Program-made: the position numbers and the translations under genes
Assembly (NCBI GenBank): GCA_032718475.1
Contig: JAUCBJ010007967.1
Location: 17,753 to 81,752, forward strand
DNA: 64,000 nucleotides
Direction: 5' to 3'
Origin: Nemertoderma westbladi
Lineage: Eukaryota > Animalia > Xenacoelomorpha
In this document: in pieces, positions 6,175-34,380 of the stretch
How positions within the stretch are numbered: the first letter of the stretch is position 1
Layout of the letters: the number at the start of each line of letters is the position of its first letter
Notes under the pieces: generated by a model
The model's input: the letters and a program-made list of their open reading frames with translations, nothing else
The model's database searches: none
Told to the model about the DNA's origin: nothing

Positions 6175-6308
6175 TCCTAACTACCTTCTAACCTATTCCC
6201 ATGCATAGCGCAAAAAACTTCGGAGATAAACTGGCCGTGACCAACTCACTTTTTGATGCCCAAGCTACTCCCCAATACTTGTACTAGACTACAGTAGTTA
6301 GAAAGACA

Positions 6309-8870: not shown

Positions 8871-9260
8871 ATGGCGTTATTGTGTAGACGAATTTTAGGT
8901 GGACGATTCCGTCGTACAGGTATCCGAGAGCAAACGCGATGCTGTGACGTCATAAATTTATACGGATATTCAATCGCGCGATTTAGCGATTCAACAATCG
9001 GATCACCCGACAATAGTAAACTGGTAACCATGGTAACCGAGGAGAATGAAGAGATACAAGTATCCGAGACACGAACACTCGTACCGGTACCAGACGCAAC
9101 CCGAAACCGACCAGAGAAGATTAGCGACGACCCATCGGGCGCCCATATCTACTACTTCCCCGAACTAACTAACACCCAACGGGACCATCACAAATTACAA
9201 ATCACTGCAGTTAAATCTCATCTCCGTGTGCAATGTATAAATAGGTACAATAGTCCTACA
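8871..9260 (+). CDS. Possible first coding exon of an unidentified gene with an Arg-rich, mitochondrial-presequence-like N-terminus
   Basis: CAACAACAATGGCG start context; MALLCRRILGGRFRRTGIR; CpG-rich; candidate donors AG|GTACAA after 9244 or ACA|GTAAGT after 9260. Confidence 0.4.
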
Positions 9261-9462
9261 GTAAGTTATTAGTTTATTAATTATTTACTATTTATACTGT
9301 AATTACGTTTTATAATAAATTGTTCTGTACATTACATCTTTATCGTTGAGTCGGTCATTGTCACGCTCTCGGTAAAGTTGTACATGTACATAGTGTAATT
9401 ACGTTTTATATTCGTTTAGGTTAGCGTAGTGTAATATTGTATTTGTAACCAAGTAACATAAA

Positions 9463-9600
9463 GGACCCCCTTGGAAATAAGCTGCAAAGCTTTAGGGGTA
9501 ATCCTATATGTTATGTTGGACAATACCTTTATACCGGTACATTGTTTGGTGTATTTGTTATTGTTTTTACATAATGTATAAATAAATCTATCTATCTAAT
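9463..9600 (+). mobile_element. 3' tail of an L2/CR1-group LINE (stem-loop, AATAAA, (TCTA)n)
   Basis: GGACCCCCTTGGAAATAAGC...GCTTTAGGGGTAATCC followed by AATAAATCTATCTATCTA; a similar tail lies at ~25578-25652. Confidence 0.55.
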
Positions 9601-9650
9601 TCCACGAACCCACCCCGTATAAACCGATGGCCAGTCATCCGATGATCTGT

Positions 9651-10242
9651 CATCCACCTTGGATCTGTCCAACAACCAACTTGGATCCGTACAACATCCA
9701 ACTTGGATCCGTCCAACATCCAACTTGGATCCGTCCAACAACTTGGATCCGAACCAACAACTCGGATCCGTCCAACAACTCGGATCCGTCCAACAACTTG
9801 GATCCCTCCAACATCAAATTCGGATCCGTCCAACATCCAACTTGGATCAGTCAAACATCCAACTCGGATCCGTCCAACAACTTGGATCCGCCCAACAACT
9901 TGGATCCGCCAAACAACTTGGTTCCAACATCTTGGACCCGTCCAACAACTTGGAACCGTCCAACAACTTGGATCCATCCAACAACTTGGATCCGTCCAAC
10001 AACTTAGATCCGTCCAACAACTTGGATACGTCCAACAACTTGGATCCGTCCAACAACTTGGATCCGTCCAACAACTTGTATCCCTCCATCATCCAATTTG
10101 GATCCGTCCAACATTCAACTTGGATCCGTCCAACATCCACCTTGGATCTGTCCAACAACTCGGATCCGTCCAACAATTTGGATCCCTCCAACATCAAATT
10201 CGGATCCGTCCAACATCCAACTTGGATCCGTCCAACAACTTG
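9651..10242. repeat. Third block of the 18/22-bp satellite, ending at a TGTAAAAG element
   Basis: Ends mid-unit: CAACTTG|TGTAAAAG. Confidence 0.97.
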
Positions 10243-13200
10243 TGTAAAAGCTTCTGTGGGATATAACTGGCCCTTTTGCTTTGCAATCCAGTTTCCCCCC
10301 AGGCGCTGGAATACTCTAAAAAGCTCTCTAACTCGAATGATGTAAAGCGACCGGCTGATTGGCTGATTTGCTGTACGAGGGGCTTTTTGCTATGTTCTAT
10401 CGGCCAACCAGAGCTATAGCAGCAGAGTATGCAACCAGGACAACCGAGCGGAGTGACTCATTTTGTGTGCTGGCCAAGGGATGCAAAAATCCTGATAGTT
10501 CGGCATTTAGATATTCGTGGAACTTGTGGAATCTGGTGTTCTGCCAATGAGAGCTATTCCTCTCTGTGTAAAAAGATACCTGCAACGGTGTTAGGGACAG
10601 TAGTAGCTGTTTTTTCTTGATACTGTTGTGTTGTTGGTATCTAGGCCAGGAACACCGGCTCTAGAATCAATTCGTTTTCATACTTTAGAAGAAACATTAG
10701 TAGGCTTAAGATTATAGAGCGTATAACTGTTATCTTGTCACATCTTGTCATATCATATCTTAACCTACCGTCTTAATGCTGTTTACTGTTGTGTTTTGGT
10801 TGAATATTATTTGGAGAACATTTATAAAGAACCCAAATTTCCCAATTTTCTTGATACACTACAGGTTAGAGAGACGGGTTATATATAGCGATTGCGACTT
10901 ATATTATTGTGTATGTAGTGAATTTAATGCTATTTGATAAGCACTACATTGGTCCGTTGCTGTTCTCTCTATATATGATAAAATTCATTGACGGTCGGCA
11001 AATTAGTGAGCAGTATTGTGTGTTACCGGTAGTGTGCATGATTGTGACTGATAACTAAGCATTTCCTAAAGAATGCGCCTCATACGTGAATCATAAGCCT
11101 TACCGACTTACCGTTGTGATTAGTATAAGTCATATCTCTGTTTACTTAGATAGAGCGCCACGTCCTAAAGGAACTGTTAATATTTCCCGAAAGTGAATAA
11201 TATTAGTCAGAAATTATTTATTAACGATCAATCGAATAATACAGTAGGCTTCACTGCAATAATAATCTAAGCCCTCAGAATCCAGTCTCCCGGGAATATC
11301 CAGCGGGTGAATGGACGCGCACTAGGCTGGCTTCTGCTAATGTTGTGTTTATTGGTATTAAATATTTGTCATCTTCTAAAGTATATTTATAAACCAAAAG
11401 ACATATAAATTTTGGCAGGTTAAACTGCTAAAGGTCTTCAAAAGCGCGTACAATAACAGTTATTGTCTTTATTGCAGTAAGCAATAAAGTTGAAAGTACC
11501 GGTCAACCGGTAAACCTGAACCGGTACTTCTGTAGGTCAGTAGGCCCAACTGCCAGAACCGGTACTGCTGTAGGTCCGTAGGTCCAACTGCCAGAACCAG
11601 TACTTCTGTAGGTCCGTAGGCCTAACTGTCCTAACCGGTACTTCCAGTATAAGTACATTAGTATTATTCGATTTTGATTATTGTATACCGGTAGGTCTTA
11701 GTATTTAATCAGGGACTGCAGCCCTGGTTCTTTATTGAGACTTTACTTATTTCTGTCAGTTTTATTTCCTAGTAAGTTAATATTGAGCTGAAGACGTGTA
11801 AGTCTGCTCAGATTGTACAGATAATTGTAGGCCGGACTGTTGTCGGATTGTTGTTGGGTTTGGAGAGATTACGGCGTGTGTAGAGTTTGTCCGATAGAGT
11901 GCCGTTAGTAAGTTGGAGCAGCCATAGCTGTAAGGTCAATCCCCTCTTAAAGAATAAGTCGTACTACCGTGTTAGAACGCATACTAACTAACCGTTTTGG
12001 AATCTGCACATACTGTAGTTTATTTAGGCTTGACAGTATTCTGCCAGCGTTTTGGCCTGTGTTTGTTTGTGTGGTCTGTTCAGGTACCGTAATAGTTATT
12101 ACTCAGATATTTGTAGGCTGGATTGTTGTCTAGCTATTATTAGGTCTGAAGAGATTGCTGCGTGTGTAGAGTTTGTCTGATAAAGTGCCGTTAGTAAGTT
12201 GGGGCAGCCATAGCTGTAAGGTCAATCCCCTCTTAAAGAATAAGTCGTACTACCGTGTTAGAACGCATACTAACTAACAATTTCAGAATCTACACGTACG
12301 GTAGTTTATTTAGGCTTGGAGGTAGTCTGCCAGCGTTTTGGTTTGTATTTGTTTGAGTATTCTGTACGGGTAGCGTAATATTTATTATTCAGAGTTTATG
12401 CGATTATTCGCAACATTCATGTCCCCAAGTTTATTCCTACAGTAATTGTGCTTGTTATACATACCGTTATAGTTAAATTAACCCGGTACTACATGGGCTG
12501 CTTGGCGTAGGACAAGACTGGTGACTTTGTGCTCTGGTCACTCCAGCAGATGCCGTGGTTCTTTTAACTGTTCAAGTATATTTAACTACTGATTATTTGT
12601 TGTACCAGTACTTGTACCTAATTTAGGGTTTAGTGTACAGTGCTTTCCGAAAGTAATTAGTGTGTAGGCAGTATATTTGTGTTGTAAAGTGGTTAATAGG
12701 CACGCTGGATCTGGTAGTCCGCGGTAATTAACTTCTAGGTAGGAACACTCCGTGATACTTAACGTAGTACCTATAGCGATACGGCTATAGGTCGTCAGGC
12801 GGTGGTATTTTCCTATCTGGACAGTGCAATATATTTACTACTACTTATTATTTTCAAATACCGTAGTACCCTGTCTGTTGTAATAACCAGAATTCTAACC
12901 CTTTGTTAGACTGGTTTGTAGACTTCCTGTAAAATTACCCTAAAATTTCGTACGTAATAATATTTTTGTTGTGTTTTAATTAGAGATTTAATCTCACCCG
13001 TATCGTAAGTAATTTGTAGTATTAAGTAACTTAGGTAAATTAGAATTATCAGTTTTTAGTGTCCAATAAATAGCACTTCACTGGGAGCGCACAGCTTCTG
13101 TGTAGTGACTTCCCCCAGAAATAATAACATTTATTTCAAATATTGACAAAACCCATTTCAAACAGGTATATATCTATTATAAATCAACTCAAACGGTTTA

Positions 13201-13710
13201 TAAATAGTAAGCCTGCCATACAACAACTAGGTCTCAATATCAGTTGGACTACTGCTTAAATAACGGTAACAAAGTAAGTTAAAGTAACCAAGTAACCCTA
13301 AAATATTCAGAAATTCAATTATTCTAAAATAATTGACATACCGGTATTTACCATAGGCTTATTATATTTATTTCTATAAATTTGAGCTGAAATCATACCG
13401 GTATTCTGTAATTAATTCTAGTCCAGAATTATACTTATATACTATAAGTGTAAGCTGCATACCGGTACGATAGGCCTATTATATATTTATATATATTTGT
13501 GCCAAAATTATATACCTGTATTCTGTGACAAAACTAGTTTACAATACTTATATATACTATAAGCATACCGGTATTCTAATATATTATATATATATCACGC
13601 TACACTGAGTAGCAGTATCGGTAATTAATTATTAGGCCAACGGTGATACTGAATTACTAGACTTGCTTTAACTGTAATATAGCAGTAGGCATTCAACTGT
13701 ACAATCAAAC

Positions 13711-16700
13711 ATGGCTGACACAAGGCAAACTCTGTCAGATAGTCTCCTAGAAACAACAGCCTGTTTCTCAGATCAAAGTATAGAGAATCCCAGACCGAGG
13801 TCTGAAACCCCTCATACTGTAAGAAGGGCAACCCCTGCAGTGGTTGTGTCAGAACCTAGGTTGGTAGAAGCGATTTCGCAATTTGCGAAGTTAGTGAAGC
13901 GCCGTTGGTCTGCCATAGGCACTCGGGCCCAAGTCAAGCGGGATCAAGAAGAAGCTATAAAACAGCAGCAACCTCCTAGCCAAGAACCTAGTTCTCAGCG
14001 GCCCGATAGCTCCAGTAGTTCGGATACTGTTGAGCGGACGCCCGAACGCGGAGCGAAGATGGCGGATACGGTTTATGATGAGCGGCCAACCTATGAAGAA
14101 TCAACCGACGCCACTTCTTCTCAAGTGGAAAGCGAGGTGGAAAGCGAGGTGGAAAGCGAAGTGGAAAGCGAATTAACAGCAGCAGAGAGACCACGAACAA
14201 GAGACGCCATCGACATTTATCTGTCCGACTATCAGCGATTCCTAGGAGACGAAGAGTTGAGGAGACGGTCCAGCTGGACTTTCCCCTAATAGTGAAAGAA
14301 CCCAGCGTGTGTTGGACTCAATTGATGCTGAAATGTTAGCTGCTAACCAAGCTGAATTTGATGAAAAACTTCGCCTCGCTAGAGTCCAAGAAGAACAAGT
14401 AAAGAAAAGACGGATAGAGGAACAAAGGGCGGCGGCCATGGCAGAAGCAGAAGCGGAAAGAAAGGCAGCGGCGGCAGAAGCAAAGGCGGAAATGGCAGAA
14501 GCAGAAGCGGAAAGAAAGGCAGCGGCGGCAGAAGCAAAGGCGGAAAAGGCAGTGGCAGAAGCAGAACGGAGAGCGTCTGAGCAGACTACCCAACTGGAGT
14601 TGGAAAATCTGCAAGAGACGCAAGACAACATAAATAAACAGTTAACTGCTAGTCAAATGCAGATGATGAGACGATCTACTCCCAAACGCCAGGGATACAC
14701 ATCATCGGAGGAAAGCGAAACCACCGATCCTGAAGGCGGAGGAAATAGATCTCGTCTAAGCAGGCGTAGAAAAACATCTCACCGTCACAAATTGCCTGAT
14801 TTGCCCCCAGCTGTTAGAAGACAGCTAGCTAGCACAGACTTAGGTAGTACGGAACCCACAGACCAAACTATTCAGGTCAAAAGACTCCCTACAATAGTTG
14901 ATGAGCCTGAAATAATTAAGCCTGTCGTTCCCAAAGTCACTCCTGTGTTAGAGACCCCTGTACTTCCAGAGCTTAACTCTAAATTCCCTTTACATAGTAC
15001 TACACTGCCTGTACCCGGTAGAACAGTCCATGAGAATATCCCTGTCCTGATAGCAGAGAGAGAAATCAAAGATTTGTCTCCCGTCGTCCCACGTCAGCCC
15101 GCTACAATGTTGGCGACTCCCGCTTCGGCGGTCGAGTGGGTAGAAGAGGGACGGCGGGGGATGAATCTCCTGCTCGGACAGATGCAGGAGACTGTCCACC
15201 AGCTTAAGGGAACAGTAAGGGAAGGTAGGGCAGAATTGCAAGAAGTGCAGCAAAGTATCGCACTGGAACGCGACAAATTAGACAATATACAAAAGGGCAT
15301 ACCAATACCCCCTGTAACATTGTGTCAACCTGTTAGGTCTGAAGTATTACATGCGCAAGGTGTGGAGCCTACACGCATCTATACTGCTAGTGAAGTAGAA
15401 ACTCCTATAGCAAACCCTATTAAGGGTGATTATCGACCTGTTATTAATGATATCCCTTAAAGACCTGACAATGATCCGAGAAATTTATATACCGATAATT
15501 CGATATTAAATAACACGATGGCCCAAGAAAGCTTTACGCGTCAGATGGCTAGAACAGAAGCCCGCCAAGCGGTCAAAGTGGGAGAGATCGTCAAATTCAA
15601 TGGAGATGAGATGAAATGGTTACCTTTCAACGAATATTACAAAGATAGCATACAAAACTCTGTACTATCTAACGGAGAGAAACTTAGGTTCCTCATCAAG
15701 TGCTTGGAAGGACCTCCCAGGTTAATGGCGTTAAAGTTTATTGGACATCCAGAAGGATTAAGACAAGTATGGGATACATTAAACATCAGGTATGGTAACA
15801 AGGATAACATAGCTAAGTATTTGTATGCAAAATTAGTAGCCCCCCGACACTTCCTTAGTAGCGGGATTATAGAGTTTTCCGATGAGATTCAGGAAATCTG
15901 TAGACAATTGGACTGGTTAGGTAAGTCTCATGAATATCAGAGTTCCATGGTTATTGGAGCAATAGTCTCTACTTTACCAAAGGGTGGAGTATGTACACGC
16001 TGGGACAAGAAAGTGTTGTACATGACTGAACAACAACGACGAAGCCCTACCATGGCTGATCTCATGTCCTTCTTAGATAGTGAAGTAAAATTACAACTCA
16101 TAAAGCAGTCCAGAGAGAAAACATCGGAAAATAAGGTAAGTGAGAAACCCGTTTCTAGGAGAAGGGTAACACCAGTGTGTTACACTGACGACGGCGAAAG
16201 CCAAGCTTCTCAAGAAGAGGACAGCGGGAAAGACACAGCAAAATCTTACTATGACAACAAGACCTATAAAGACGTAAGTAAATATAAGTCTCGAACCAGT
16301 GACAGGAGAGAACAGGTTGCTAAGACTCCTCCTCAGTCTCCTAACAGAATGCACGGAAGAAAGCCCGAAGTAAGAACGAGAGTGCATCACGTTACCCAAG
16401 GGAAAGTGAGTAACATCAAACCAAACTGTGCGCTGTGCGACGGGCCCCACCGTTTGAGTGCGTGTGCTGAATTTCTAAAGAAATCCCTTGTAGACAGACG
16501 TACAGTCCTGTGGGACAAGCGGTTATGCTATAATTGCCTCAGACCAGGACACCAACGGCGAACCTGTTACTCCGACATAAAGTGTGCAAAGTGTGGCGCG
16601 AAACATCACATCTTGTTACACAGTGAGTTCGAACGAGACAAACTGAGTCAGGTAATTGAGCCCGAACTACATGTCCAATTCAGTGATGTAAACGACACTG

Positions 16701-17860
16701 ATCAAGAATCTGAGATGGAAGGATTCTATACTGACGAATTCTCCGACGCCAATGAATCCTGTTATCTAATCAATACCGCAGTGTATCGAGCACTTACTTA
16801 TGAAAAGGACACCAACAATGAGTTTCCCCCAACTACTTTTGCCAAACAACCATCTTGGAAAGCTCCAACTTCCAACGTAGGAATCAGAGAATTTCCTGTA
16901 GTGCAGGTAAGAGTTCACGGTCTTAACAAAAGTTACATAGTGAACGCCCTCCTTGACTCCGGCAGCACAGGAACATTCATCGATCAAGAACTAGCCGAAG
17001 ATATCTTTGCTGGACAACCCAAGTTCCGGACTAAATTGAATATGTCAGGAATTATGCAGGTTTGGAAATCTACCCTAACGGCAGACTACTATGTAGGTGT
17101 GTTGTCCACCCCCCAGGATAAATTAGGAGCACAAGGTATAAGGTCGGTAAAAATGGTGGCTATAAAGAACTTCGCTACTACCCAAGCAGACCTTTATAAT
17201 TGGGACGAGGATAAGAGCATCCAACATCTTAAGATACCTCGATTCCAGACAGATTATCCTGGAGTGCAAATACTCATCGGCCAAAACGCGCATGAGGCGC
17301 TCGAGACATTGGAGAAACGGCCTGCTCAACCGCAGCCACTACAAACCTATGCGGTAAGAACTAGAGTAGGTTGGTACTTCACTGGCCCTTCCCGTAGAAC
17401 TCTCAAAGAGAGATTACCTCAACAACAAGTATACCAAGTAAAGGAATGGGAAGTGGAGAGCAGTGATGTGGACGATCCAACTGAGGGAACACCATACTCC
17501 TCAGATAATGACGATATTAACTCCAATGTAGATCAATGGAGACATTGCCTTGGGACGATTAATCCAGCCGACATCGCTTCCAGAGGAGCAACTCTTCAAG
17601 AACTGATAGATACTCCAGGCTGGTTAGGTGGATCCGACTCCTTAAGTAAAGAAGAAGAAGAATGGCCTCCTCATCTTACCACGGCAGAAATTAGACAGGC
17701 CAAGGGAGCGGAGAAAGTAACACAACAACTCAATCGCCCAGCTAGTCGTTTATGTTTACTGGAAAGAGACCGAAAACTGTCCGGAAACTATGGAAGGCAA
17801 GATACTCTTCCTACGACCACTTCCCTAATCCGACAAATATCTAGGGACTCCATAACGTAA
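13711..17860 (+). pseudogene. BEL/Pao gag-protease polyprotein lacking RT and integrase cores; one frameshift (~14270) and one nonsense codon (15458-15460); 15518-17860 still open
   Basis: DUF1759-type KFNGD..W..F...LSNGEKLRFL; knuckles CALCDGPHRLSAC, CYNCLRPGHQRRTC, CAKCGAKHHILLH; protease LLDSGS; RNase H tail QWRH...NPADIASRG...W; integrase tail RPASRLCLLE; copy E reads through the frameshift and copy D has TAT for TAA. Confidence 0.92.
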
Positions 17861-17878
17861 TAACATATGGAGTGGGCG

Positions 17879-18287
17879 TGTGACTATATCATTTTATATT
17901 TGTTTTTATTTTATATTTATGTATGTATTATTATGTAATTTTATTATAATCGTTTTCTTTAATTTTATTTAGTAGAATGTTATTTTAGTGATTATTTAGT
18001 AGATTAGTGCAATATATTAGTGTTTATTACGTACGTAATTATTTATAATATATATTTAGTGCGACGGCGAGAAATAATTATTTTTTCTCTTTCCTTACTG
18101 TCCGTATCATATTATAAATACGTGACTATAGTAAGATGAAATGTCCGTACTTATTAAAGTACAATAAAGCTCCTACTATACTTAAGTATTATTGGTAGGC
18201 AGAGTATTAGGAATGCAAAGTTCAGATCCTCGTGTCTCGGCTAAACCAAGCTCTGGGTAGACCTTGGAAACGACTTGCCTCTTCACA
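17879..18287 (+). mobile_element. Candidate orphan 3' LTR of the BEL element
   Basis: Purine-rich GGAGTGGGCG just after the ORF stop, then TGTGA...TCACA inverted ends with internal AATAAA; no 5' partner seen. Confidence 0.6.
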
Positions 18288-18412
18288 CTGACATTGCTTC
18301 GTGCGATATTGCTCTTCTACCTTATATTAAATAATACATATAGTAGCGTGATGTCCCTATAACAGTAGCGTAAAACGCAAATAAATCTGTTAAACCTTTT
18401 GACCATCTGTAA

Positions 18413-18672
18413 TTCTAGTCGATTAAAATATCGCGGCACCCACCGATATACTTGAAAGACAAATTCTAGAATCAGTGGTTAACGTCCCCAGACAAGTTCT
18501 GGAATAAATCGGTGCCCATCTTAAATATTAATTTAATATTTATTAAAATCTGTAAAATTCTGATCCTTTAAAATTTCTAGTCAATTAAGATATCGCAGCA
18601 TTTACCGATACTCTTAAAAGACAATTTTATAGAATTAAGGATCCTATGTCCCCAGACATGCTCTGGAATAAA
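18413..18672. repeat. Two diverged ~96-bp direct repeats (period ~162 bp)
   Basis: TTCTAGTC.ATTAA.ATATCGC...CCCCAGACA...TCTGGAATAAA at ~18413 and ~18575. Confidence 0.75.
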
Positions 18673-19489
18673 ATTGTGTCAATTTTACCATCAAATAATA
18701 AAATTCACGGGAATAAATTTAAATTCATATCTTAAATGAATTTCATAAATTGTCATTTTGTGCAATTTATAACATTCCCAAAATTCCATTAATTAATAGA
18801 TCATGGGAGCGGAGATTCATCCTATTGAGTGTATTAGAGTGCGAGAATCTCCAACATATAGTCAATAGCCGATAAAAATAATAAAATCATGCATAAAGAG
18901 AATATTGACAATTAAAGAATTATTATTAAATAGCATCCCAGATCTGTATGCATGAGAATTACCCTAATTCTACCGCTAGCATTCCATAATGTCACCATAG
19001 CAACACCCACGCTAGAATTAGAAGCAAGTTAAAAGAACAATAGAAAGCTTGTCCCATTGCATAGCATAGAGAATACATAGCACACTGTTAGTATCCAAAG
19101 ATACACAGTAATAACGTGACATTCTGGAAGGCACTGACTAACGGACAAATGGCCTGTATGTGTACAATTGGTGACAGTTGTGTGGAATTTGTGCGTTTAT
19201 AGGTGAATGTTACTGCTAAGGTGTGTTTACAGTAGCTAGTCGCAATTGTGAAAGTAGCCCAACTCTCCTATAGAAAGAACCTAAAGTGGATTCAAGCCTT
19301 TGGGACGGACAGTGGAGTGACTTGTGCCGGTTATCGTTGTTGTGCTGTTGCTACATGTTGGCGTAAACACCGCGACGACGGTACATCGGCGCTGAGAATC
19401 CCACTGTCCGGGGGCAAAGAGAAGTAGGCAGCGACGCCCGCTCGCCTAAATATAAACTTATTTGATATTAATAAACTCAGATAGCAGAT

Positions 19490-20485
19490 ATGACGGAGTT
19501 GATAGAAGATGATCTTGGTATTAGGGAGCGATATACTCTACCTTTACAAGCATTTGTGGATAGCTTAATACGCGGTGAAGCCGATCCAACCATTACGGAG
19601 GAAGATGGTTGTTATATCGAACCGCCGATGTCCCAAGAGCAACTTGCGCGTGAATTGGACTATCGAAAATTCACCACTCGCTATACGAATCGTAACAGTA
19701 CGTATATGGACTTCCTAACTACCGGCCATCCTATCGATTTACATGATACGGACGATGTATACACCGAAAGGGAAATGGTTCTATTTAAATATCATACCCA
19801 GCGGAGTCGTAACGATAAACCGAGAATAGATCACGAAAATTCTATTCGTAACCGACTGGGAAGACGAACCAATATGCCTAGAATCTGAGGAGATTCAGCC
19901 TATCGCGCCCGGAACAGCGACAACGATTACATCCTAGAATGGTATCAAGGTCCACAGTGTCTCACTGCGTACGATTATCGACATGCCAACTATGTTTCTA
20001 GGCAACGTTGTCGGTTATGCGCATCGAGAGACCACGATACGCCCATGGACACCGACGTCCGCTGTTCCTATTTCCAAGAACAACCGACTATGGAAATTTA
20101 TTGCGCATATTGCAGACTCAATAACTTGCATATTTTTGCGGTTTGCCCTCAATATATGACTCAATGTCACCATTGTCAACTAAAGGGACATGCCAGTTTC
20201 GATTGCCCTTTTAATCACGATTTGGAAAGCGTAGATGAAATGATCACACTACGTTACATCAGAGCTTGGGAAGCGAACGCTGATTTACACTGTGATTCGC
20301 GCCATCGCTATTATCCCGGACGCGCTTACGAAGGAGTTTATGCGTTCCATCCTTATCTATTCGCTTCGGTTGAACAGAAATCACGCATATCAAGTTACGA
20401 GCTACTGAAGCGCGTCGGAGAATGTATTTCAACCAAATTCGTACGCAAATTTCTCAGGAGTGTTAATCCTAGCGACCTTCTGTAA
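19490..20485 (+). pseudogene. ~330-codon ORF with three CCHC-like zinc knuckles and one in-frame TGA (19886-19888)
   Basis: ORFs 19490-19888 and 20045-20485 share a frame with no other stop between; CRLCASRDH..C, CAYCRLNNLH...C, CHHCQLKGHASFDC; the final stop is supplied by the next element's TGTAA. Confidence 0.7.
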
Positions 20486-21268
20486 AAGCTTCTGTGGGAT
20501 CTAGCTGGCCCTTTTGCTTTGCGGTCCGAGTTCCCCCCAGGCGCTGGAATACTCTAAAAAGGCTTTCTAACTATATATATATTCCCCTCGCCCGCAAGGT
20601 ACCGTAATAGGTGTTTTAACGGACATAAAAGTCATTCTTCTAGATTTGTACTTTAGAGGACATAATCCGCAATCTCGTGACGCGATAAGCTGGGTACTCT
20701 TGAAAACAGTGTCGCTACCATGACGACGGCTAACAGCTGATATTGCCACGTCGACATTTCTTTGTTTCTTTGTTCTCTCGTGGTTCGGTTGACCAATCAG
20801 AGCGATTTTTTCTGTAGATGTGGAGCTTTGGGCAGATCATGCTAGAGCGTTCAGTCTTACTGTTTTTTATGATACTGTTGTTTTTGTTGGTATCTAGGCC
20901 AGGAACAACGGCTCTAGAGTTAACTTGTTTCATACTTTTAGAAGAAACATTAGTAGGCTTAAGATTATAGAGCGTATAACTGTTATCATATCAACTCACA
21001 TATCAACTCAATCAGTGCATATCTTGTCATATCTTGTCATATCATATCTTAACCTACCGTCTTAATGCTATTTACTGTTGTGTTTTGGTTGAATATTATT
21101 TGGAGAACATATATAAAGAACCCAAATTTCCCAATTTTCTTGATACACTACAGGTTAGAGAGAGACGGGTTATATATGGCAATTGCGACTTATATTGTTG
21201 TGGTTTGTAGTGAATTTAATGCTATTTGATAAGCACTACATTGGTCCGTTGCTGTTCTCTCTATATAT
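20481..21268 (+). mobile_element. TGTAAAAG head, copy B (truncated)
   Basis: First ~90 bp and last ~400 bp match 10243-10975 and 59743-60515; the middle differs from copy A. Confidence 0.85.
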
Positions 21269-21622
21269 TTATACGATGTTGACAACTACGACTTTAGAGG
21301 GATTGTAATATTCATATTAAAACAATAAAATAGGACATGGGGTCTATTCCCTCAGATACTACCTAGCATTTAGGGCCACTTGGGCCACTGTTAGTACTCA
21401 GGCACTAGGCCCATCAAAAAACACACAACAAAATACCAAATCGATTTTAGTGCTACATAAACCCAACCCAACTACCACAAGAAAAATTGCACCAAACCAT
21501 ACAGTAACTACAGGTTCCGGTAAGTATTGCACGAAATAGGCTATCCCATAAATTACGAAAAATATAGGACATTTTGTCCGCCGAAAAAGGTAAGTCTAAG
21601 TAATAAATTTTATAAAAATAAA

Positions 21623-21694
21623 AGGGTTTCGGAGATTTAAACACTGAACCCTGGGATTCGTGGTTCTCCTCATCAGCAGTGTGCCACGAACCCC
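21623..21694 (-). ncRNA. Hammerhead ribozyme with rearranged (non-circularly permuted) strand order, copy 1
   Basis: Minus strand GGGGUUCGUGG C ACACUG CUGAUGA GGAGA A CCACGAAUCCC AGGGU U CAGUGU UUAAA UCUCC GAA ACCCU: both core motifs, stems I, II, III and an extra 11-bp helix. Confidence 0.8.
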
Positions 21695-22302
21695 ACCTCT
21701 ACCCTAACAAAACTGCACCACTAAATTAAGATAATGACCAATAAATTAGAAATCCTACCGTACCACCCAACAGAGTTGAAACCACCCACCCCCAAATGTA
21801 TGTTACCATCAGCCCCAAATGCATAAACATGATTTCCCAACTGAATGCAACCAACCCCAATTAGCACCTACCGGTATGTACAGATATATGATCAGATTTT
21901 TTAAACAAAATTGCGCAGATGTCAGGAAATACCCCTTTAAATATATAATTATACGATGTTGACAACTACGACTTTAGAGGGATTGTAATATTCATATTAA
22001 AACAATAAAATAGGACATGGGGTCTATTCCCTCAGATACTACCTAGCATTTAGGGCCACTTGGGCCACTGTTAGTACTCAGGCACTAGGCCCATCAAAAA
22101 ACACACAACAAAATACCAAATCGATTTTAGTGCTACATAAACCCAACCCAACTACCACAAGAAAAATTGCACCAAACCATACAGTAACTACAGGTTCCGG
22201 TAAGTATTGCACGAAATAGGCTATCCCATAAATTACGAAAAATATAGGACATTTTGTCCGCCGAAAAAGGTAAGTCTAAGTAATAAATTTTATAAAAATA
22301 AA

Positions 22303-22374
22303 AGGGTTTCGGAGATTTAAACACTGAACCCTGGGATTCGTGGTTCTCCTCATCAGCAGTGTGCCACGAACCCC
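22303..22374 (-). ncRNA. Hammerhead ribozyme with rearranged strand order, copy 2
   Basis: Identical to 21623-21694, 680 bp away. Confidence 0.8.
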
Positions 22375-22872
22375 ACCTCTACCCTAACAAAACTGCACCA
22401 CTAAATTAAGATAATGACCAATAAATTAGAAATCCTACCGTACCACCCAACAGAGTTGAAACCACCCACCCCCAAATGTATGTTACCATCAGCCCCAAAT
22501 GCATAAACATGATTTCCCAACTGAATGCAACCAACCCCAATTAGCACCTACCGGTATGTACAGATATATGATCAGATTTTTTAAACAAAATTGCGCAGAT
22601 GTCAGGAAATACCCCTTTAAATATATAATTATACGATGTTGACAACTACGACTTTAGAGGGATTGTAATATTCATATTAAAACAATAAAATAGGACATGG
22701 GGTCTATTCCCTCAGATACTACCTAGCATTTAGGGCCACTTGGGCCACTGTTAGTACTCAGGCACTAGGCCCATCAAAAAACACACAACAAAATACCAAA
22801 TCGATTTTAGTGCTACATAAACCCAACCCAACTACCACAAGAAAAATTGCACCAAACCATACAGTAACTACA

Positions 22873-25800
22873 CGTTCGTGGGGCCTTCGCGCAGCACGAG
22901 GCCCAGTTATGAGATACAAATTAAAATTGTGCGACTGTATCACAAAATCAGGTTATGAGAGATTAACCAACACCACCAATTAATCAAAGAAAGGGGGACA
23001 GTACGTGTTCACCCCTTTTAATCTGCACCCCCCCCCCCCCCCTCCCTTCCCACCCACCAATACATAACCGCGACATCTACCACCCACGGAAGGGTAGCAC
23101 GAACTTATTTCCAAACGCACGTTCAATATGCAAAGCCAGGTGGTTTATAGGAATATAATCAATGCAGTACTCGTCTTCATTATAAGCCTCTTTGCGTTCG
23201 ACCTGTTTTGTATTAAAATATATTTATTAAACGCAGGCTGACGCTCTTTATAATAATAATACCTAGGGATGCCAGCTTCCAGACTTTCAATCTTTACTGC
23301 CGCGCAAACCCCGCAGAGGAAGTTTTGGTTTGAGAGATCAAGCCCATCGGGCGATTATTGAAAAATGGTCACACTTCACATCAAAAAATTAACATCCCCA
23401 TCACCAAAAATGGTTTCCATATCCTAAAAGTATGGTATCTAAAGTGTAGGAAATGGGTATGGATGAGTAAATATTTGATCGCTTAGAAAAAATACTGGGA
23501 TGTAAAGTCTGCTGAAAATTGATAACATAATTATCCTAATAATTTACGTTTTTAAAAGTAATTTAAAAATATTATGGTATACATTACCATGCAAAATGCA
23601 TGCATATTTTGGAAGCACCACTGCAGTAAACCATTTCACAAAAATAATTATTGGATTTCAGTAAGCCATCTTACGGAAACAAATGATTTGCTCACTAGTG
23701 CTGGAAATTCCGTCAGTCACAGAAATTAGCAGTAAAGTTTAGTTATTCTGAAACAGAAAGGCTTTCTGGCAAACTTTCTTATCCACAAATTCAGATATTC
23801 TCCTGACCACAATGCATGACAAGGACTTTGCTGTGAAATTAGCGTAGGCTGACTGGTGACTGATGAATTATCAAATATTATATTTTCCATGAATGCAGGA
23901 TCCATATTTGTAAAAGCCTTTGCTGAATTGCCCCGTTATTTTTATTATCTTTTACATTAAAATACTCTGTAGTTGATTTAATAAGTGTAAGAGACCGTAT
24001 TATTGTTGTATCGGTGTTTTTAGAGGATCTAAGACCTATTTCCTCCGTATGTGTACTGTGAAAGGCATATTTTATGATTCTATGGCAATTCGTGACGCAA
24101 AAGGGTGATAGCTACTCTTGAACAGTAGTTACTATGACTACGGTTAACAGCTGACATTCATACGTGTTGATTTCCTTTGTTCTACGGCGTCTCTCAGTTC
24201 AGTCAGCCAATGAGAGCGTTTTTGTGGCTCCTTGTACAGAAAATTTCCGAGAAATGACGCAATGCCTATGTGCAGTGTTTACATTCAGTCTTGAGCCAAA
24301 GAAAGAACGGCTTGGAAGTATTTTGTGTTGTACTGTTTTTTAGTCGTACACTGGTAGGTTTAATTATAAAGGGCATATATCCTTTAACTGATAAATCAAG
24401 AGATAGGAGGGGGGTGGGACTGGACGCAAATCCCATCTTGGCGAATTAATATCCCGCCTCAATATTAATTTCTAAATTTTGGGAAAGGAGCAGGTTACAG
24501 TGGCACGTTATTTTAACCAAAACAATAAAGTAAACACAATAGAACAGGTTACAGTTTTATTTTTGAGAGTAATCAGCTGTTGTTATTTGCGTCCAATTTC
24601 CCCTGGAGAGGGATGAATTTTTATTGCGTCCAGTCCCCCCCCCCCCCCCCCCCCTATCTTGAAATCAAATACCAAAAATATATTTATTATATGAACAATC
24701 TATTTGGAAATTGTAAGTTCGGCCTATCTCTTTACCATAAGCTCAGTATCTTTATCTGGTGTGTTTTTATTATTTTACCAATTATTTAATATGTTTGATA
24801 GAATTGAACAACACCGCCCAACACAACCAACTCTCTATCCGCCTCGAGCATCGAGAATACGAGAAACTCGATCGAAATACCTGCTTATCCCAGTAGTATC
24901 CGTCCGTAGTCTAGTCACCGGACCGCTGCGGTTTACTCCCGTAGAACAGTAGAATTCCCGCAGCTTCCGACCCAATTCGACAACGAATTCGCTTCACACT
25001 TTCGCGTCACAGAGAACGTAATCCAGTGCGATAACGTCTGCCCAACGTTCAACCATTTCCCCCAGGCGATCCCAGGATCCGGGCCGCCGCTAAACCCAGA
25101 TCGCAATCCTCGTCGATTCGTCCAGTCGTCGACGTAAGTCAGTAAGTGGGACTCTTCCCACCGCACTCCAAGGTGGGTGACCGGAGTGAGGCATGATGAA
25201 CTTGGCAGTGGCCCGCATTACGATCTGACCGACCGCCGTATTCCCAGTGTCTGAGTGTAGTAAATACCCAAATAGAATCGTACTGACAAACAAGCAATTC
25301 CGTAGTATTCCCCCGTTAATCACCTCTTGAAGCAACTCGGCTGCTCGGGTCCAGATACATCGGACTGTCGGGAGCGTTTCAGACATCAGACAGTAATGGA
25401 GCGGCATTTGCGAATATTTCCAATGGTTTTATAATAAATAAGGGGATTCAACAGTTCAATGCTAAAACAAATGGATTATTCCTAACCCCACCCCAATACA
25501 GCAATATACCTAACAGTATATAGCTTAGGTACCACAGTCTGACTAGCTTTAAATATTAGAGTATGAAAATTATTATAGGACCCTCATGGAAACGAGGTAT
25601 ATACCTCATGAGGCTATCCTTACACCAGAACCCTTTATTTAAGTAAATAAACATTTTATAAGTTGACTATCTACATAAATCAGTATTGGTGCTCCTAAAT
25701 ATCTAGTGTTATTAGGCCTACTTGTACTGTAGGCCTAATATCGTAACGTAATCTTTATAAATGTATTATTGTGAATTTTAAAAGGTTTAATTATGTGTAA

Positions 25801-26471
25801 AAAACAATCAATCAATCAAACCATAATCAGCACAGTCAGCCTACGCATGGGTGGTACCTACGGTGCGCACTACAACGGCTGAACGGCAGTACAGCAATAC
25901 GGTGTACCGTGCCAATGACTGAATGATTAGCGGTAACTACTGAACTATCTAAACTATTATATTATTATTACCGGTACTAGGCTAATTAGGCCTAAACTAT
26001 AATCACCGCAAGGGTTTCCAGGGCCATGTTTAGATTACATGATATGGCATGTCTGCAGTGTATGGTACCGGCTGACCTGTATTACAGCCTGACAGTACCG
26101 GTACAAATGGTACATGCAGATTGGCAGACAGCCCCTATGTTTTGCAAAATTTGTCAGAAAACCAGCTGATTTATCCTACAGTAATAATAATTTAACGCAT
26201 GTTAATTTTGGATAAATAAATATATTATAACTACAATAACAGTTACACTGATGCTGCACGAAGGCCCCACGCAAATTCTACTTGGAAAATTTTCAAACTT
26301 TTGCCAAACAACATGTGTACCAAGTTTGGATAGATTTCATCAAGGATTGGCCGAGTTATTAACGTTTAAAATAAAATACTGAAAAAAACCACGCGACAGA
26401 ACGACAGAACGACAGGTTGATTAATGGTACCACTACGCTAAGGCTCTCTCACTTCGTGGCTCGCCCCACAA
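22873..26471 (-). mobile_element. Non-autonomous Helentron/DINE-1-like (HINE-type) composite element, inverted relative to 44277-49458
   Basis: Terminal GTGGCTCGCCCCAC, (CGACAGAA)n microsatellite, and long reverse-complement matches to 44.3-49.4 kb. Confidence 0.7.
23909..24392 (+). mobile_element. Diverged TGTAAAAG head, copy C, inside the HINE-like element
   Basis: Shares TGTAAAAGC, TAACAGCTGA, CCAATGAGAGCG and AACGGCT landmarks with the other heads. Confidence 0.65.
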
Positions 26472-27799
26472 GTCGGGGTGCAAGGGGGTGAATGTGCCGG
26501 ATTACAAATAATTATAACTTATAAGTGGTGTGTACGAAAGTAATTAATCGGTATTCCCGTTTTCATATAAACAATAATGTCTATAAATTGTAAGCAGCAA
26601 TTTCTCCAAGGAATGAGGTTTAAGCGACAGTGTTTGATTGTTTATACATGACCTACTTTATACAGAGTATGTTTAATCTGTTTACCTTTACTGGAGCCAC
26701 TGCTTATTACTGTATAATAAAACGAGCTAATTAAGTTATTGTCCCATGCTGGGGTGGGGATATACATTCACTAACCACAGTAAGGTCTTAACGTAATAAC
26801 TACGGTAATAACGTTTATTGTTTTGGTTCCCCCAATACTCCTCTGAAACCTGCTCCTTTACTAAACTACTCCTTTACTAACCTGCTCGCCCCTTTACTGT
26901 CTGCACCAGTGTCTGCACCAGGAGTCTGCATCACTGTCTGCACCACTGTCTGCTTAACGTTTACACCCTGATTCTGTGGCATAATCAAACTGAACTCAAA
27001 CCAAAACGGCGCTTTTAAGGGCCAACATCCTTTGCCACTATCGAGGAGCTCCCCGTGCTTCAAAGGGAAACATGGCTGCAAAGCGACTAACGCTGGATAA
27101 ATTAGATTTTTTTAAAAATGTGATTAAATCACAAATATTGAAAAGTAAGATAGGTTTAAAGAATTGCCTATAAAATTTGTATACTTTCGTATTGGACCCT
27201 AAATATTTGCATGCAAGCTCAGAATTAAATTATCTTTTGAATGATATATTACACTAAAGTGCATGTCTGGCAGTTTTGGCTGGCCAGGGGGGGGGGGGTG
27301 GGGGGGGGGGGGGAATCATTATGGAACACCCGGTATGTGAAAAAAATTATCGATGAACACTTACAAACCAAATCAATCGAAACTCAAAAACTTAAAAAAT
27401 GCCCTAAGTTTGGTGCATCAAAAATCATGTTAAAACTTAAATACTTGTATCTAGAGCTCAGTAGAGTGCTCCATACCAATAACAATCAATAAATAACCAC
27501 AAAACATCGCTAAGGACGAACTCATAAACCTAAAGACCTTATAAAAAATTCTCTAGAAAATCTAGAAAAAAAAATCTCATAAGACCTTATAAAATTCTAA
27601 AATTTCATAAAAATGTGTGCTCGCGACCAAATTTTGAGGTAGCACCCACATCGAAAAGTACAAACCCAACTGCAACGACGCTTTTTGCAATTTGGCTATT
27701 TTTGCAAAATTGGGCAGATACATACTGGTTGTACAACAGTTTTACAGTTTTTTCCCCTAGAGTGGAATGGGTATCCCGTTCTAGATCCATAATAGGTAT

Positions 27800-28170: not shown

Positions 28171-28415
28171 CTATAATCATGTATACAGTGTACAATCCAT
28201 TCAAAATCTTCCCAATACGAATCCAAGATCCTTTCACATTCTATCCCAAAGCGCACTAATCCAAATAAGTTTGTATACCTCTTACGCTCGCTAAGTATTT
28301 TTTTGCAATATACTTTTTTAAATTACTCATACTCATATTCCTGAGTTCAAGTGGGAATAATATTCGCTCTGTCTCAATACCATTGGTTAATCTGTTCGTG
28401 TATTTTACCTTGCAG

Positions 28416-31399
28416 GCCGGGGATATCAAACGAATGTCACCTCGCCTCCAGTCAATCTCCGGTAGTCATCACAACTGCCCTAAACCACAGAGCGGTTTGT
28501 CAGCTCAGGCGAAACCTCATCAAGCCCCGACACATTCGAAGCCTTCACAACAAGCACCTGCCGTAGTGAAACCCCTACAAACACCCTCACAAGCTAAACA
28601 AACGCAGCATAATATTATAACACCAGTAATGCCAAAACTACGACCTAATTTGTCATCCCCCAATACAACCCCTACAGAATCGCTATCAATTACACCGTTA
28701 TCGGTACCACACAGCACATCAACCGTTTCAGTAGCCTTAACACCGCGCAGCTATTCTCCTGTATCATTAAGCGAGAGTATATCGAACTCCATATCAGTAC
28801 CAAACACAATCCAAGCGATATCTGTACCACATACATCCTCAACAGTTCGGCAATCAAAGTCAATCGACTCTGAGTCGCAACAACAGTCGCCCAAACCCCG
28901 CCTTCAACTACTTGGGAGGGCGCATTCATTTAGTCGGACAGCCCATCCTATACCTATCGTAGTAAACCGACGTGCTCCATTGCCCGGGTGTGCTACCAGA
29001 CACCCCCGAGTGAGCCCCACCTCCCAGACACCCGGTGGTTCGCGCCCCAGTGTAGAGAGCCCCACCTCCCAGACACCCGGTGTCTCACGCCCCAGTCTAG
29101 AGAGCCCCACCTCCCAGACACCCGGTGTCTCACGCCCCAGTCTAGAGAGCCCCACCTCCCAGACACCCGGTGGTTCACGCCCCAGTCTAGAGAGCCCCAC
29201 CTCCCAGACACCCGGTGGTTCACGCCCCAGTCTAGAGAGCGCCACCCCCCAGACAGATGTTATTGCTCTGGAAGTGTCTCGGGTAAACCCCACGCTGCCC
29301 GCTTCCGTTGTCACTGACCCGTCTTCTTTATCTATCGGGTCGCCGCTGAATTCTCCCGCGAGCTTCCGGTCTCCCGGGGCCGGTAGAGCAGGGCTCTCCC
29401 CGGTCACCTATTTCCCTCGTTACAACTCGTCCGCTCCCTCATCCCCCCTCAATCCCCGCGGTTTACCCTCCTCCAGCCCGCGTAGTAAACCCGATGCCAA
29501 ATCTCCCGGTCAGTTCAATCTCCGCAGGGCCTCAGTTCTCTCAGGACTTTCGATATCTCGAAGAGACTCCGCCAACAGTCGCAGGCCGGGCGCAGGCTCG
29601 CTCGCCAAAGTAACTGTTAATGTGTGGCCCGCATCCAGTTCTGTGTCCACAGCAAGCACTCTCTCAGTAACCAGTCCTAGTTCCATAGCAACCAGTGCCT
29701 CGTGCTCAGTGACTACTCCGGTTTCCATAGCAACCAGTGTCTCATGCCCAGTGACTAGTCCGATTTCCCTAGCAACCAGTGTCTCAGGCCCACTGACTAG
29801 TCCGGTTTCCATGGCAACCAATGTCTCATGTCCAGTGACTAGTCCGGTTTCCAAGGCAACCAGTGTCTCGTGCCCATTTACTAGTCCGATTTCTATAGCA
29901 ACCAGTGTCTCATGCCCAGTGACTAGTCCGGTTTCCCTGGCAACCAGTGTCTCGTGTCCAGTGACTAGTCCGATTTCCATAGCAACCAGTGTCTCAAGCC
30001 CGGTGACTAGTCCGGTTTCCAAAGCAACCAGTGTCTCGTGTCCAGTGACTAGTCCGATTTCCATAGCAACCAGTGTCTCAAGCCCGGTGACTAGTCCGGT
30101 TTCCAAAGCAACCAGTGTCTCGTGTCCATTGACTAGTCCGATTTCTATAGCAACCAGTGTCTCATGCCCGGTGACTAGTCCGGTTTCCATATCAACCATT
30201 AGCCTGCAGCCTACAACAACCACTGTTTCTACAGCGATGGTGAACCCATTGCCCGTATCCATTGTTTCCGTAGCAACAATTAACCCGATGGTCTCGACTA
30301 ATCCGACTCTCTTGGCGACTACTACCAACCATGTAGTATCGCCTTCCTTCCATTTGGTAATCCTCCCCTCGCCAACGTCCCAGACTGGGGCCGCCCCCAC
30401 ACTGGTACCTCTCATACCGACCTCCAACACGAATCCAGCCATCACACCCACCGCAGGCCCCACCATTCCCACTGGTAGTATCCGAATCCACATACCTGTG
30501 TCATCAGTACCGGGGACTGTAGCCCAATTTGCCTCTTTGTCCTCCATCCCTTCCGGCCACACATTGACTAATACTAACACAATGCTGCCGAGCAGGAAAC
30601 ATTGTCGCGTCCGGAATACCCTGTCCACCCCGTTATTATCCACTGTACCTATAATAACGTCCATCGATGGAAAAATATATAGTGAAATTGTTAGTATAGG
30701 ATCGGAAGAACCTAAAAGTATACCAGTTTTATTAGCGAAGAAGTACTCAGAGCGAAAAATCGCAGCGAAACCTGAAACTGGAACTGAATTCGGGATGAAA
30801 CCGACTCGTCGGAAATTTTCTCCAAAACTTCCGTCTCCCTCAATGAACCGAATGATGTCGCCGTTGGTCCTGCGTAAACTCGCGACTTCCACTCGGGCCG
30901 AATACAAGGTGATCACCAAGTCCGGGATTCCGTCGTCCGTGGCGGGTCCCAGTGCCACCTCGGTGGTGGAGCCCGAAGGAAGCTGGGATGGCTCAGTGGA
31001 GGGGCCCCAAACGGCCATGGCTATGCAGCCGATCCGCGGACTTGTTCGTAAACGTCGCGAGGTCAAGTCTGCTACGATCCTGGATGACATCCAACTCGTT
31101 GACGCTACGCCGGCGTCCCCTTCCTCGGAGGTTAGCCTCCAACTCAAAGCGGATCCGGTACTAGCTGGTCCCGCGGTTCCACCACTATCAGGTTCAACAG
31201 CTTCGGGTTCCGCCGTTCCAGCACCTTCTGGTTCCGCCGTTCCACCACCGATCGGTTCCACTACTCCGGTACTGTCAGCTGATCCGGTCGGGAAGACGGC
31301 GGAAACTCCGGAGATCGTGGCATCCACCTCGTGCGACACGAAGGGGAGTCCACGTAACTCTAGGAAAGTTCGGGAATACAGTCTACCAGACGGGAGAAG
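28416..31399 (+). CDS. PWWP2: Large internal exon of a PWWP2-like chromatin reader (S/T/P-rich, with 15-aa and 14-aa repeats)
   Basis: Acceptor TTTTACCTTGCAG| ending at 28415; ~1000 open codons; phase-2 donor AAG|GTTAGT joins in frame to 37138 giving LPDGRRFRVDDVVWAK; upstream exons not identified. Confidence 0.75.
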
Positions 31400-31829
31400 G
31401 TTAGTATATGGCAGCGGGTGGGTTGACATGACATACTAATACTATAGAAATTGGACCCCATGATACCGAGACCAATAAGATATGGTAAGCCCACTGTAGT
31501 ATACTTGCAAGGTGGCCCAAATAATTAAATATTTTGGAATAGTACATGAATGATCATATTTTTAACACCTCCCAGTCCCATCTCTGCAGTGTTATTTTGT
31601 TAATTGGGCACTATTTTATTTGGTTTAAAACTTAAGTTAATGTCATCTTGGGTTGTGTCTGTGCCGGTACTGGCCTACCTGCATCTATTTGAATAATTGA
31701 TTGGATAATTTATTTGAATGATTTGATCTACTAATAATATGGCTAATGTAGAAACATTTTCAGAACAAACTACAAAAAGACTTAATCCTGTTACAAATTC
31801 AAAAGAGTGTTTCAATGGATGATGAAAAA

Positions 31830-32632: not shown

Positions 32633-33639
32633 AAATTGTAAATGTAAACAAGTATACTTGCAAGGTGCCCCAAATATTGAAATATTTTGGAATAGTACAT
32701 GAATGATCACCTTTTTAACACCTCCCAGTCCCACACTCGGTAGTGTTATGTTGTTAATTGTCCGGGACTGTGTGTTTTAAAGAACGCTTTCGAACTGCCT
32801 TTCCTCGGTACTCAAACTTACAGATAATGGGTTTGGAACTATCAGAGGGGGGTTGAGTCCACCCGATCAGTGATACCTCGACGCACTTGTCGTTACCATG
32901 TCGCAATGTTTATGTGCCGTTACTTGATGTACTATTTGCTATTATACTGAAACGGGGGGGGGGGGGGGGGTCAAGGTTATAGTGTAAAAATGATTTTCGA
33001 TGCATTCGCATTCAAATAAATGCACATCTGATGGAACTCTCTAGTTTGGCCGCCCATTCTCCATGACATTATTAAAAATTGATGATGTATATCGTGAGGT
33101 TGCGAGTCTCCGTACCGTAAACACTATTAGGATGGAGAATAATTATGCGATAAACATGTTCTTGAAAGCTATAGTTACAATCTCTAACTAACAGCTATGT
33201 TGGAAAATTCTGTCCAAAAAGTTGAGCTAGAAACATTTGAATAATGGGTTTCAACAACCCATGTTGTCTGAATCGGGTGGTGGGAGTAAAAACCTGGTGA
33301 TTTCCGTTTCATCCATTGTCGGACGTCAACTTGGCGTTTACTTACACCCATATAGAGTACCAAGCAGACGTACGAGATGCTTAACAAGCAGCACATGGCA
33401 TCGCTTTTAATTAATAAGCCACATGGTTTAAATATTGTTAAACATCATTGTATTCGTAGTCATTGGTAATGACAATTTTAATTAAACACCTTTTAAGTGT
33501 TTAGTTTAGTTCAGTTTATATATTATTATTTCTACGTAATATTTTTAGCCTTTAAAGTTAAATTAAACTTAGTTAAAAGTTAAAATTGTAAATTTGTTTT
33601 ACAAATTTTAACAATTTTCAATATTATTGGACTAAGAAA

Positions 33640-34380
33640 ATGGCGAACTCATTTAATATTGCGGAATTTAGCGACGGACTGAGAGGCAGTCTGGTTGGAG
33701 TGAATCAAGAAGAATCAATGGGAATCTACGACAAAGCGGCTCAAGGGTGGGACAAAATGCTGGGCGAGTTGGGCGACAACTACATCCCGGGATCGCAATG
33801 CGTTAAGTTCGTGTTGGAATCGATATCAGCGCGTCATTGGCGACCGAAAGTCATCGATATCGGTAGCGGAAACGGAATAGTTGGAGAACTTATACACAGA
33901 AAGACTGGCTTCCAGGGAGAACTCCACGCGATGGAGGGAAGTGAAGGAATGATGGATAAAACTCGCGAGAAACCCATTTATTCGCGTTATTTCCAGCAGT
34001 TATTTAATAGGGATGATTGTGGTTTCCCTGACAACTCGTACGATATTGCGATTCTCGGAACGGTTTACGGATACGGCGCAATCGATTGGAAGTATCTCCC
34101 GGAGATTATCCGGATTATAAAGCCTCCGGGTTTGGTCGCGATATCTTCGAATACCGACCGACTTTTAGAGGACAGCCCCCAAGGCACCCTCGAGTCTCAT
34201 CTCTATAAACACGTTGACAATGGCAATTGGAAGCTAATCCACAGGATTAAAGCAACCAATAAACCGATTCTAAGTTACCTGTTCGAAGTAAATGTTGATA
34301 AACCATCGCTTGTTGGTATTCCGGATATGAGCTGCGAAGACCTTCCCTTCCCCAAACCTAAAACTTGCGCCTGGAAATAG
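33640..34380 (+). CDS. METTL27: Intronless class I SAM-dependent methyltransferase, METTL27/WBSCR27-like
   Basis: 246 aa intact; YD..A..WD, motif I VIDIGSGNG, EGSEGM, FPDNSYD, IKPPG as in the WBSCR27 family. Confidence 0.8.
   Translation: MANSFNIAEFSDGLRGSLVGVNQEESMGIYDKAAQGWDKMLGELGDNYIPGSQCVKFVLESISARHWRPKVIDIGSGNGIVGELIHRKTGFQGELHAMEGSEGMMDKTREKPIYSRYFQQLFNRDDCGFPDNSYDIAILGTVYGYGAIDWKYLPEIIRIIKPPGLVAISSNTDRLLEDSPQGTLESHLYKHVDNGNWKLIHRIKATNKPILSYLFEVNVDKPSLVGIPDMSCEDLPFPKPKTCAWK

Follow-up and report, generated by a model that had tools for sequence, protein, structure and literature searches.

A type CSG hammerhead ribozyme candidate in a retrozyme-like tandem repeat of an animal genome

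On the minus strand of the window, the whole 64,000-nt stretch of DNA analysed here, the sequence elements of a hammerhead ribozyme occur twice, in an order that fits none of types I, II and III. The locus raises two questions: what kind of hammerhead this is, and what such a ribozyme might serve in a tandem repeat of animal DNA.

Architecture of the candidate ribozyme

The two copies and the parts of the first are as follows.

21623..21694, minus strand: type CSG hammerhead candidate, copy 1, in the order P-I-CUGAUGA-II-P'-III'-U-I'-UUAAA-II'-GAA-III
22303..22374, minus strand: hammerhead copy 2, identical in sequence to copy 1, with the predicted cut between 22327 and 22326
21694-21684, minus strand: 5' strand of helix P, paired with 21663-21653 (helix within 21653..21694; 11 bp, one G-U)
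21683, 21682-21677 and 21676-21670, minus strand: C, stem I and CUGAUGA of copy 1
21669-21665, 21664 and 21663-21653, minus strand: stem II, A and P' of copy 1
21652-21648 and 21647, minus strand: III' and U17 of copy 1, followed by the predicted cut between 21647 and 21646
21646-21641, 21640-21636 and 21635-21631, minus strand: I', UUAAA and II' of copy 1
21630-21628 and 21627-21623, minus strand: GAA and III of copy 1
21665..21682, minus strand: block C (stem I 5' strand, CUGAUGA and stem II 5' strand), which forms the loop of helix P
21641..21652, minus strand: block S (stem III strand, GUU triplet with U17 at 21647, and stem I 3' strand)
21623..21635, minus strand: block G (stem II 3' strand, GAAA and stem III strand)

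The hammerhead core (CUGAnGA, GAAA and NUH, with stems I-III in correct register) is complete in the candidate. Stems I, II and III comprise 6, 5 and 5 Watson-Crick base pairs in both copies, and the block order is C-S-G. A preliminary description of this DNA had located the stems and the predicted cut at the same positions of the minus strand, and all of them were recovered here. Its reading of the motif as a non-circularly permuted, pseudoknotted hammerhead outside types I, II and III also holds, as the order is CSG and an Rfam scan of the window returned no hammerhead match at E≤1, the two weak matches being unrelated and neither of them a ribozyme. A finder that covers all six block orders reported two cores passing its filter in any order in the 64-kb window, namely copies 1 and 2; on the opposite strand, none of the orders gave a further core. 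The cut after GUU is placed by analogy with CSG-1 and CSG-2, two validated ribozymes discussed below. U17 is the slowest of the usual cleavage-site residues.

As a control for chance, the 64-kb window was dinucleotide-shuffled 4767 times and both strands of each shuffle were searched. The shuffles contained 18 hammerhead-like cores of any order with at least 14 bp, one of them with stems of 6/5/5. None was a CSG core at 6/5/5, either with or without a helix P of at least 8 bp. We consider it nearly certain that the motif folds as type CSG, and very likely that the candidate cleaves in vitro.

Helix P, described earlier as 11 bp with one G-U, was recovered in the local ensemble, where its pairing probability exceeds 0.99. 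It adjoins stems I and II without linkers and, as had been proposed, takes the place of the tertiary contact between these stems. A twelfth pair (U-A) could form in competition with the last pair of stem III. The linker between P' and III' has 0 nt, and a C·A at 21683/21664 flanks the helix at the position where CSG-1 and CSG-2 have U·G. Each of the three core helices has a computed stacking energy of about -10 kcal/mol. In pseudoknot-free minimum free energy (MFE) folds, flanking sequence pairs with the stem III strand. The upstream flank (21695-21712, minus strand) carries a second AGGGU, the same sequence as the stem III strand, and this possible decoy could switch the ribozyme off.

Comparison with the published type CSG

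In the scheme of Eckert et al. 2023 (PMC10085705), a hammerhead consists of three blocks (C, G and S), for which six orders are named. The block order and topology of the candidate are not new and equal their type CSG. The preliminary description had called such rearrangements rare; the topology, whose status it had left to be checked, was already in print as this type. As described in the main text of that paper, type CSG comprises two similar unique sequences with five hits in soil-metagenome DNA. CSG-1 and CSG-2 cut in vitro at the predicted site, as monomers and in cis, at the slow rates of 0.004 and 0.026 per min, respectively, and the cleavage of CSG-1 was incomplete. The same authors graded the biological relevance of CSG as weaker than that of type SGC, because it was represented by two similar sequences and no host (PMC10085705).

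The candidate resembles CSG-1 and CSG-2, as presented in PMC10085705, in the order C-S-G, the 6/5/5 stems, the CUGAUGA and GAAA core, the DNA source, and a helix P that joins the distal ends of stems I and II without linkers. The I'-II' linker is also of 5 nt and starts with UUAA; the UUAAA found here is that of CSG-2. The differences concern helix P, with 11 bp plus the C·A here and 8 bp in CSG-1 and CSG-2 (about 4 bp longer if counted as 11-12 bp), the P'-III' linker (0 nt versus 2 nt), the cleavage triplet (GUU versus GUC), and the setting, which is a tandem repeat in an animal genome as against soil-metagenome contigs without a host or role.

In an alignment by eye with the published CSG-1, 13 of the 24 pairs differ in both nucleotides, 10 are the same, and one U·G has become C·A; three distinct CSG sequences are too few for statistics or for telling descent from convergence. 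The doubly changed pairs are spread over stem I (4 of 6), stem II (2 of 5), stem III (3 of 5) and helix P (4 of 8). No core pair is broken relative to CSG-1, and 23 of the 24 pairs remain standard.

A descriptor search for covarying homologues, also suggested in the preliminary description, had a negative outcome, and the doubly changed pairs come from the comparison by eye. None of the 115 pattern-matched loci (7 + 13 + 17 in viral contigs, at least 60 in metagenome contigs, and 0 + 18 in prokaryote genomes) folds as CSG with at least 13 bp in total and at least 4 per stem; the metagenome blank is uninformative, since CSG-1 and CSG-2 fit the pattern yet are absent among the matches listed. 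Our re-implementation of the published descriptor fails on the candidate at the 10-nt limit for the II-III spacer and succeeds at 12 nt. The spacer of the candidate is 12 nt long, so the published search pattern would miss it; the value of 10 nt is a limit of the search, not part of the structural definition. In the literature searched for rearranged hammerheads, type CSG included, from animals or from retrozymes, the only primary description was that of Eckert et al. 2023; retrozyme families with unusual ribozymes may be listed in supplements of bioRxiv papers. In its accessible text, PMC13725137 merely cites Eckert et al. 2023.

The preliminary description had also raised the possibility that the motif folds only between two repeat units. 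In this arrangement, the neighbouring unit or a second molecule would supply the block S with which blocks C and G pair, so that the ribozyme would resemble type I or III with a very long loop and be active only in dimers. The 0-nt P'-III' linker would fit such a form, and dimer-dependent cleavage is reported for amphibian retrozymes (PMC7229834). However, pairing between units is not needed, as monomers of CSG-1 and of CSG-2 cleave in cis and some SGC ribozymes have zero-nt linkers as well (PMC10085705). Helix geometry argues in the same direction: if P is a strut beside the II/III stack, its 11-12 bp, about 4 bp beyond those of CSG-1 and CSG-2, would roughly compensate for the missing linker. 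An inter-unit active form is very improbable in our judgement.

The 680-bp array as a likely mobile repeat

Both ribozyme copies lie in a tandem array, the surroundings of which are as follows.

21269..22872, minus strand: array in which a non-coding unit of 680 bp is repeated 2.36 times in tandem without mismatches, a retrozyme-like insertion
20475..21268, plus strand: older repeat broken by the array at TATATAT
22871..23350, no strand assigned: unrelated repeat with a terminal hairpin, which adjoins the third unit, where the array stops; a sibling lies at 45959-46435
21647..22326, minus strand: predicted cut-to-cut monomer RNA, 680 nt, 38.5% GC, with a U/G-rich sense strand

The ribozyme copies are 680 bp apart, one per unit, and the unit contains no ORF of at least 70 aa. 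A complete hammerhead is present in two consecutive non-coding units of low GC content; at least two such units define a non-LTR retrozyme (bioRxiv 10.64898/2026.07.22.740005). The remark on repeat units in the preliminary description was only a hint at this 680-bp tandem retroelement context, where the novelty of the locus resides. In the window, uninterrupted siblings of the older repeat at ~10976 and ~60517 continue differently from the interrupted copy. The left edge of the array is marked by a loose end at 21268, and the unit shares a TATATA microhomology with the target. No target-site duplication can be read, since the right end of the array adjoins another repeat and the second half of the target does not lie beside it in the window. 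The sense strand of the unit has 11 runs of at least four T, which makes Pol III transcription of the whole unit unlikely.

The genes of the window are of animal type and include DUF1759 ORFs, a LINE-type reverse transcriptase (RT), and a branched-chain aminotransferase (BCAT) whose named hits are all animal, the best at ~50% identity and none above 52%. The DUF1759 ORFs, which we take to be of BEL/Pao type, belong to diverged copies of a BEL/Pao-like element at 13678-20482 and 56912-64000. The BCAT ORF (39613-40695, minus strand) and a methyltransferase ORF (33592-34377, plus strand) are apparently intronless. A repeat family of very high depth, whose terminal hairpin is GC-rich, occupies 22871-23350, 26252-26473 and 44329-48247; several of its copies are nested, and both orientations occur. 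At 1-10340 lies a long, degenerate minisatellite in which both strands have open frames. An ORF of 1018 aa at 28269-31439, which contains repeats of 42 and 45 bp, has no Pfam match.

In public sequencing data, the unit is present in four runs of organism A from three studies. Contig depth reaches ~4600 on the ribozyme, as against ~15-30 for diverged and junction contigs (runs X1 and X2), a contrast that is a rough sign of many copies and not a measure of copy number. Several distinct junction contigs were seen. No variant at 1% or above occurs within 21623-21694 in X1 or X2; positions 21584, 21698 and 21702 vary. This invariance carries little weight, as the family is young. None of the runs listed as carrying the unit is an RNA run. 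Run X5 (organism B, presumed RNA) yielded a single near-identical unit contig of 219 nt at depth 2.2, which does not cover the ribozyme and was left out of the evidence. Runs X7 and X8 (organisms C and D) gave no match to the unit, which is not proof of absence.

Among 15 of the 19 joints, 6 connect opposite strands within the unit and correspond to 4 junctions when folded onto one unit. Two of these 4 inverted junctions were found in both X1 and X2, and two of the listed loose ends read by eye as inverted unit sequence. At one inverted junction, 21398/21653, seen in two samples, one arm ends 6-7 nt beyond the predicted cut, just where P' ends. X1 and X2 also contain a 172-bp derivative of the unit that has no ribozyme; its joint, from 21340 to 21859, skips 518 bases and carries 10 other letters, and its depth is 172-389.

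Two diverged loci, both present in X1 and X2, match the window at 21594-21678 and 21602-21686. Their similarity is confined to ~85 nt around the ribozyme (of 211 nt), at ~87% identity. They may possibly stem from other families, or from autonomous elements, that carry a related CSG ribozyme, and the identity around the ribozyme would be compatible with either selection or simple decay.

The insertion inside an older repeat and the inverted junctions point to retrotransposition, and the array is likely to be a mobile element of the retrozyme type. Our main reading, to which we assign a probability of about 0.65, is that the CSG hammerhead in each 680-bp unit serves a non-LTR retrozyme that is copied via a unit-length, probably circular RNA. 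Metazoan non-LTR retrozymes, as characterized by Cervera and de la Pena 2020 (PMC7229834), are cut into monomers, circularised, and copied by the RT of a retrotransposon. In the mechanism proposed here, a transcript through the array would fold helix P first, with block C looped out. Self-cleavage at the predicted site after GUU would free the monomer, whose ends would stay docked through the 16 bp of the core stems and could be sealed either by RtcB or through ligation by the ribozyme. A Penelope-like RT acting in trans might then go round the circle more than once while copying it into TA-rich sites, which could give rise to partial tandem arrays and inverted junctions.

That the copying partner is Penelope-type is somewhat favoured. 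According to Craig et al. 2021 (PMC8557442), Penelope-like elements (PLEs) are biased toward (TA)n and occur as partial tandems, with truncated copies in inverted orientation; Naiads are described there as having no canonical hammerheads, some of them carrying split half-cores. In view of the partial tandems, inverted copies, TA-rich targets and Naiad split half-cores, a PLE is the most plausible partner. A scan of 17 ORFs of the window revealed no Penelope-like ORF and no RT/GIY-YIG ORF linked to the unit.

The same features bear on a different reading, in which the unit is the pseudo-LTR (pLTR) or 3' tail of an autonomous PLE (e.g. a Naiad) or of another non-LTR retrotransposon, the array is a heavily 5'-truncated partial tandem, and the CSG ribozyme processes the RNA of that element instead of a separate retrozyme circle. 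The partial tandems, the inverted junctions and the TA-rich targets are all known from PLEs, and split half-cores occur in some Naiads, which lack canonical hammerheads (PMC8557442); in addition, retrozymes are described as related to pLTRs (bioRxiv 10.64898/2026.07.22.740005), and the two diverged loci share only the ~85 nt around the ribozyme. Such a tail would, however, have to account for 2.36 perfect head-to-tail copies without a coding remnant, and none of the loose ends and contig pieces listed runs from the unit into an ORF. We regard this reading as unlikely.

It could also be that the motif is CSG-shaped but weak or inactive, and that the repeat now spreads as DNA, either as a satellite or as a passenger of a DNA transposon. 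The GUU triplet, the zero linker, and the MFE folds that sequester the stem III strand are all compatible with a poor ribozyme. The 172-bp derivative indicates that tandem units can be amplified without a ribozyme, and the array adjoins a very high-copy repeat with hairpin ends. On the other hand, all core nucleotides and pairs are intact; the lack of variants at 1% or above in X1 and X2 argues weakly in the same sense, given the youth of the family. The insertion within an older repeat and the inverted junctions indicate retrotransposition rather than spread as DNA, and we find this alternative improbable.

Stems across the cut and relation to known systems

Returning to the retrozyme reading, the block order has a consequence for the ends of the monomer. 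By computed topology, CSG alone among the six block orders has stems I, II and III all spanning the cut. Both monomer ends would be joined by three helices with a total of 16 bp, compared with one helix in type I. We hypothesize that a CSG monomer releases its ends slowly and is shifted toward ligation. The incomplete cleavage of CSG-1 would be compatible with such a shift, and equally with misfolding. Substantial self-ligation of the monomer is possible rather than probable. For type I retrozyme monomers, PMC7229834 gives a self-circularisation of ~1-3%, versus 30-80% with RtcB, and because of the low first value RtcB is regarded as necessary for the circles of animal retrozymes. The circular monomer of the candidate is no more stable than its shuffles (z -0.11) and is not unusually stable on either strand. 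The 680-nt unit is above the size of the 170-400 nt circles shown in animals (PMC7229834) and inside the 51-972 bp span of predicted families given by Li, Clavereau and Pollet 2026 (bioRxiv 10.64898/2026.07.22.740005), whose text states for Xenopus that one of nine predicted retrozymes cleaved in vitro.

A bolder extension, which we hold only tentatively, is that CSG might be a self-clamping hammerhead of animal retroelements. The docked 680-nt monomer would then circularise without a protein ligase, such elements would form a hidden retrozyme class missed by type I descriptors, and the orphan CSG sequences from soil would be fragments of similar animal elements. A ribozyme with all three stems across the cut offers a natural test case for protein-free circularisation; if self-circularisation is true, it could become a compact tool for the production of circular RNA.

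Among the rearranged hammerheads, the candidate is related to type SGC (HRIMA-1 and its variants), with which it shares the cyclic block order, the direct I'-II' linker and a P helix. Circular permutation of the blocks converts SGC, CSG and GCS into each other (PMC10085705). The candidate differs from SGC in being opened at another place, as only stem III bridges the cut in SGC. The sources also differ: the SGC sequences described in PMC10085705 come from putative circular RNA replicons in metatranscriptomes, and the CSG candidate from a genome. It would represent a third, strongly diverged CSG sequence, in an apparently young animal mobile repeat, and adds compensatory change and a biological setting to this type.

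The array resembles the pseudo-LTRs of PLEs, including Naiads, as reported in PMC8557442, in having a hammerhead in a terminal repeat, TA-rich targets, partial tandems and inverted copies. The PLEs described there carry canonical or minimal hammerheads or none at all, unlike the array found here, and the unit has no linked RT or endonuclease ORF in the window.

A close parallel is provided by the metazoan non-LTR retrozymes (PMC7229834; bioRxiv 10.64898/2026.07.22.740005), which likewise consist of non-coding head-to-tail units of less than 45% GC with one hammerhead each. Their arrays range from dimers to multimers and are multi-copy in an animal genome, as the family of the present array probably is too. 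Non-LTR retrozymes are defined in both sources by type I hammerheads, whereas the array carries CSG. Its organisation is thus that of a retrozyme, but it counts as a variant rather than a member of the group as defined. A retrozyme-like CSG repeat in an animal genome is a setting that we have not found in print, and retrozyme surveys that rely on type I descriptors can overlook families.
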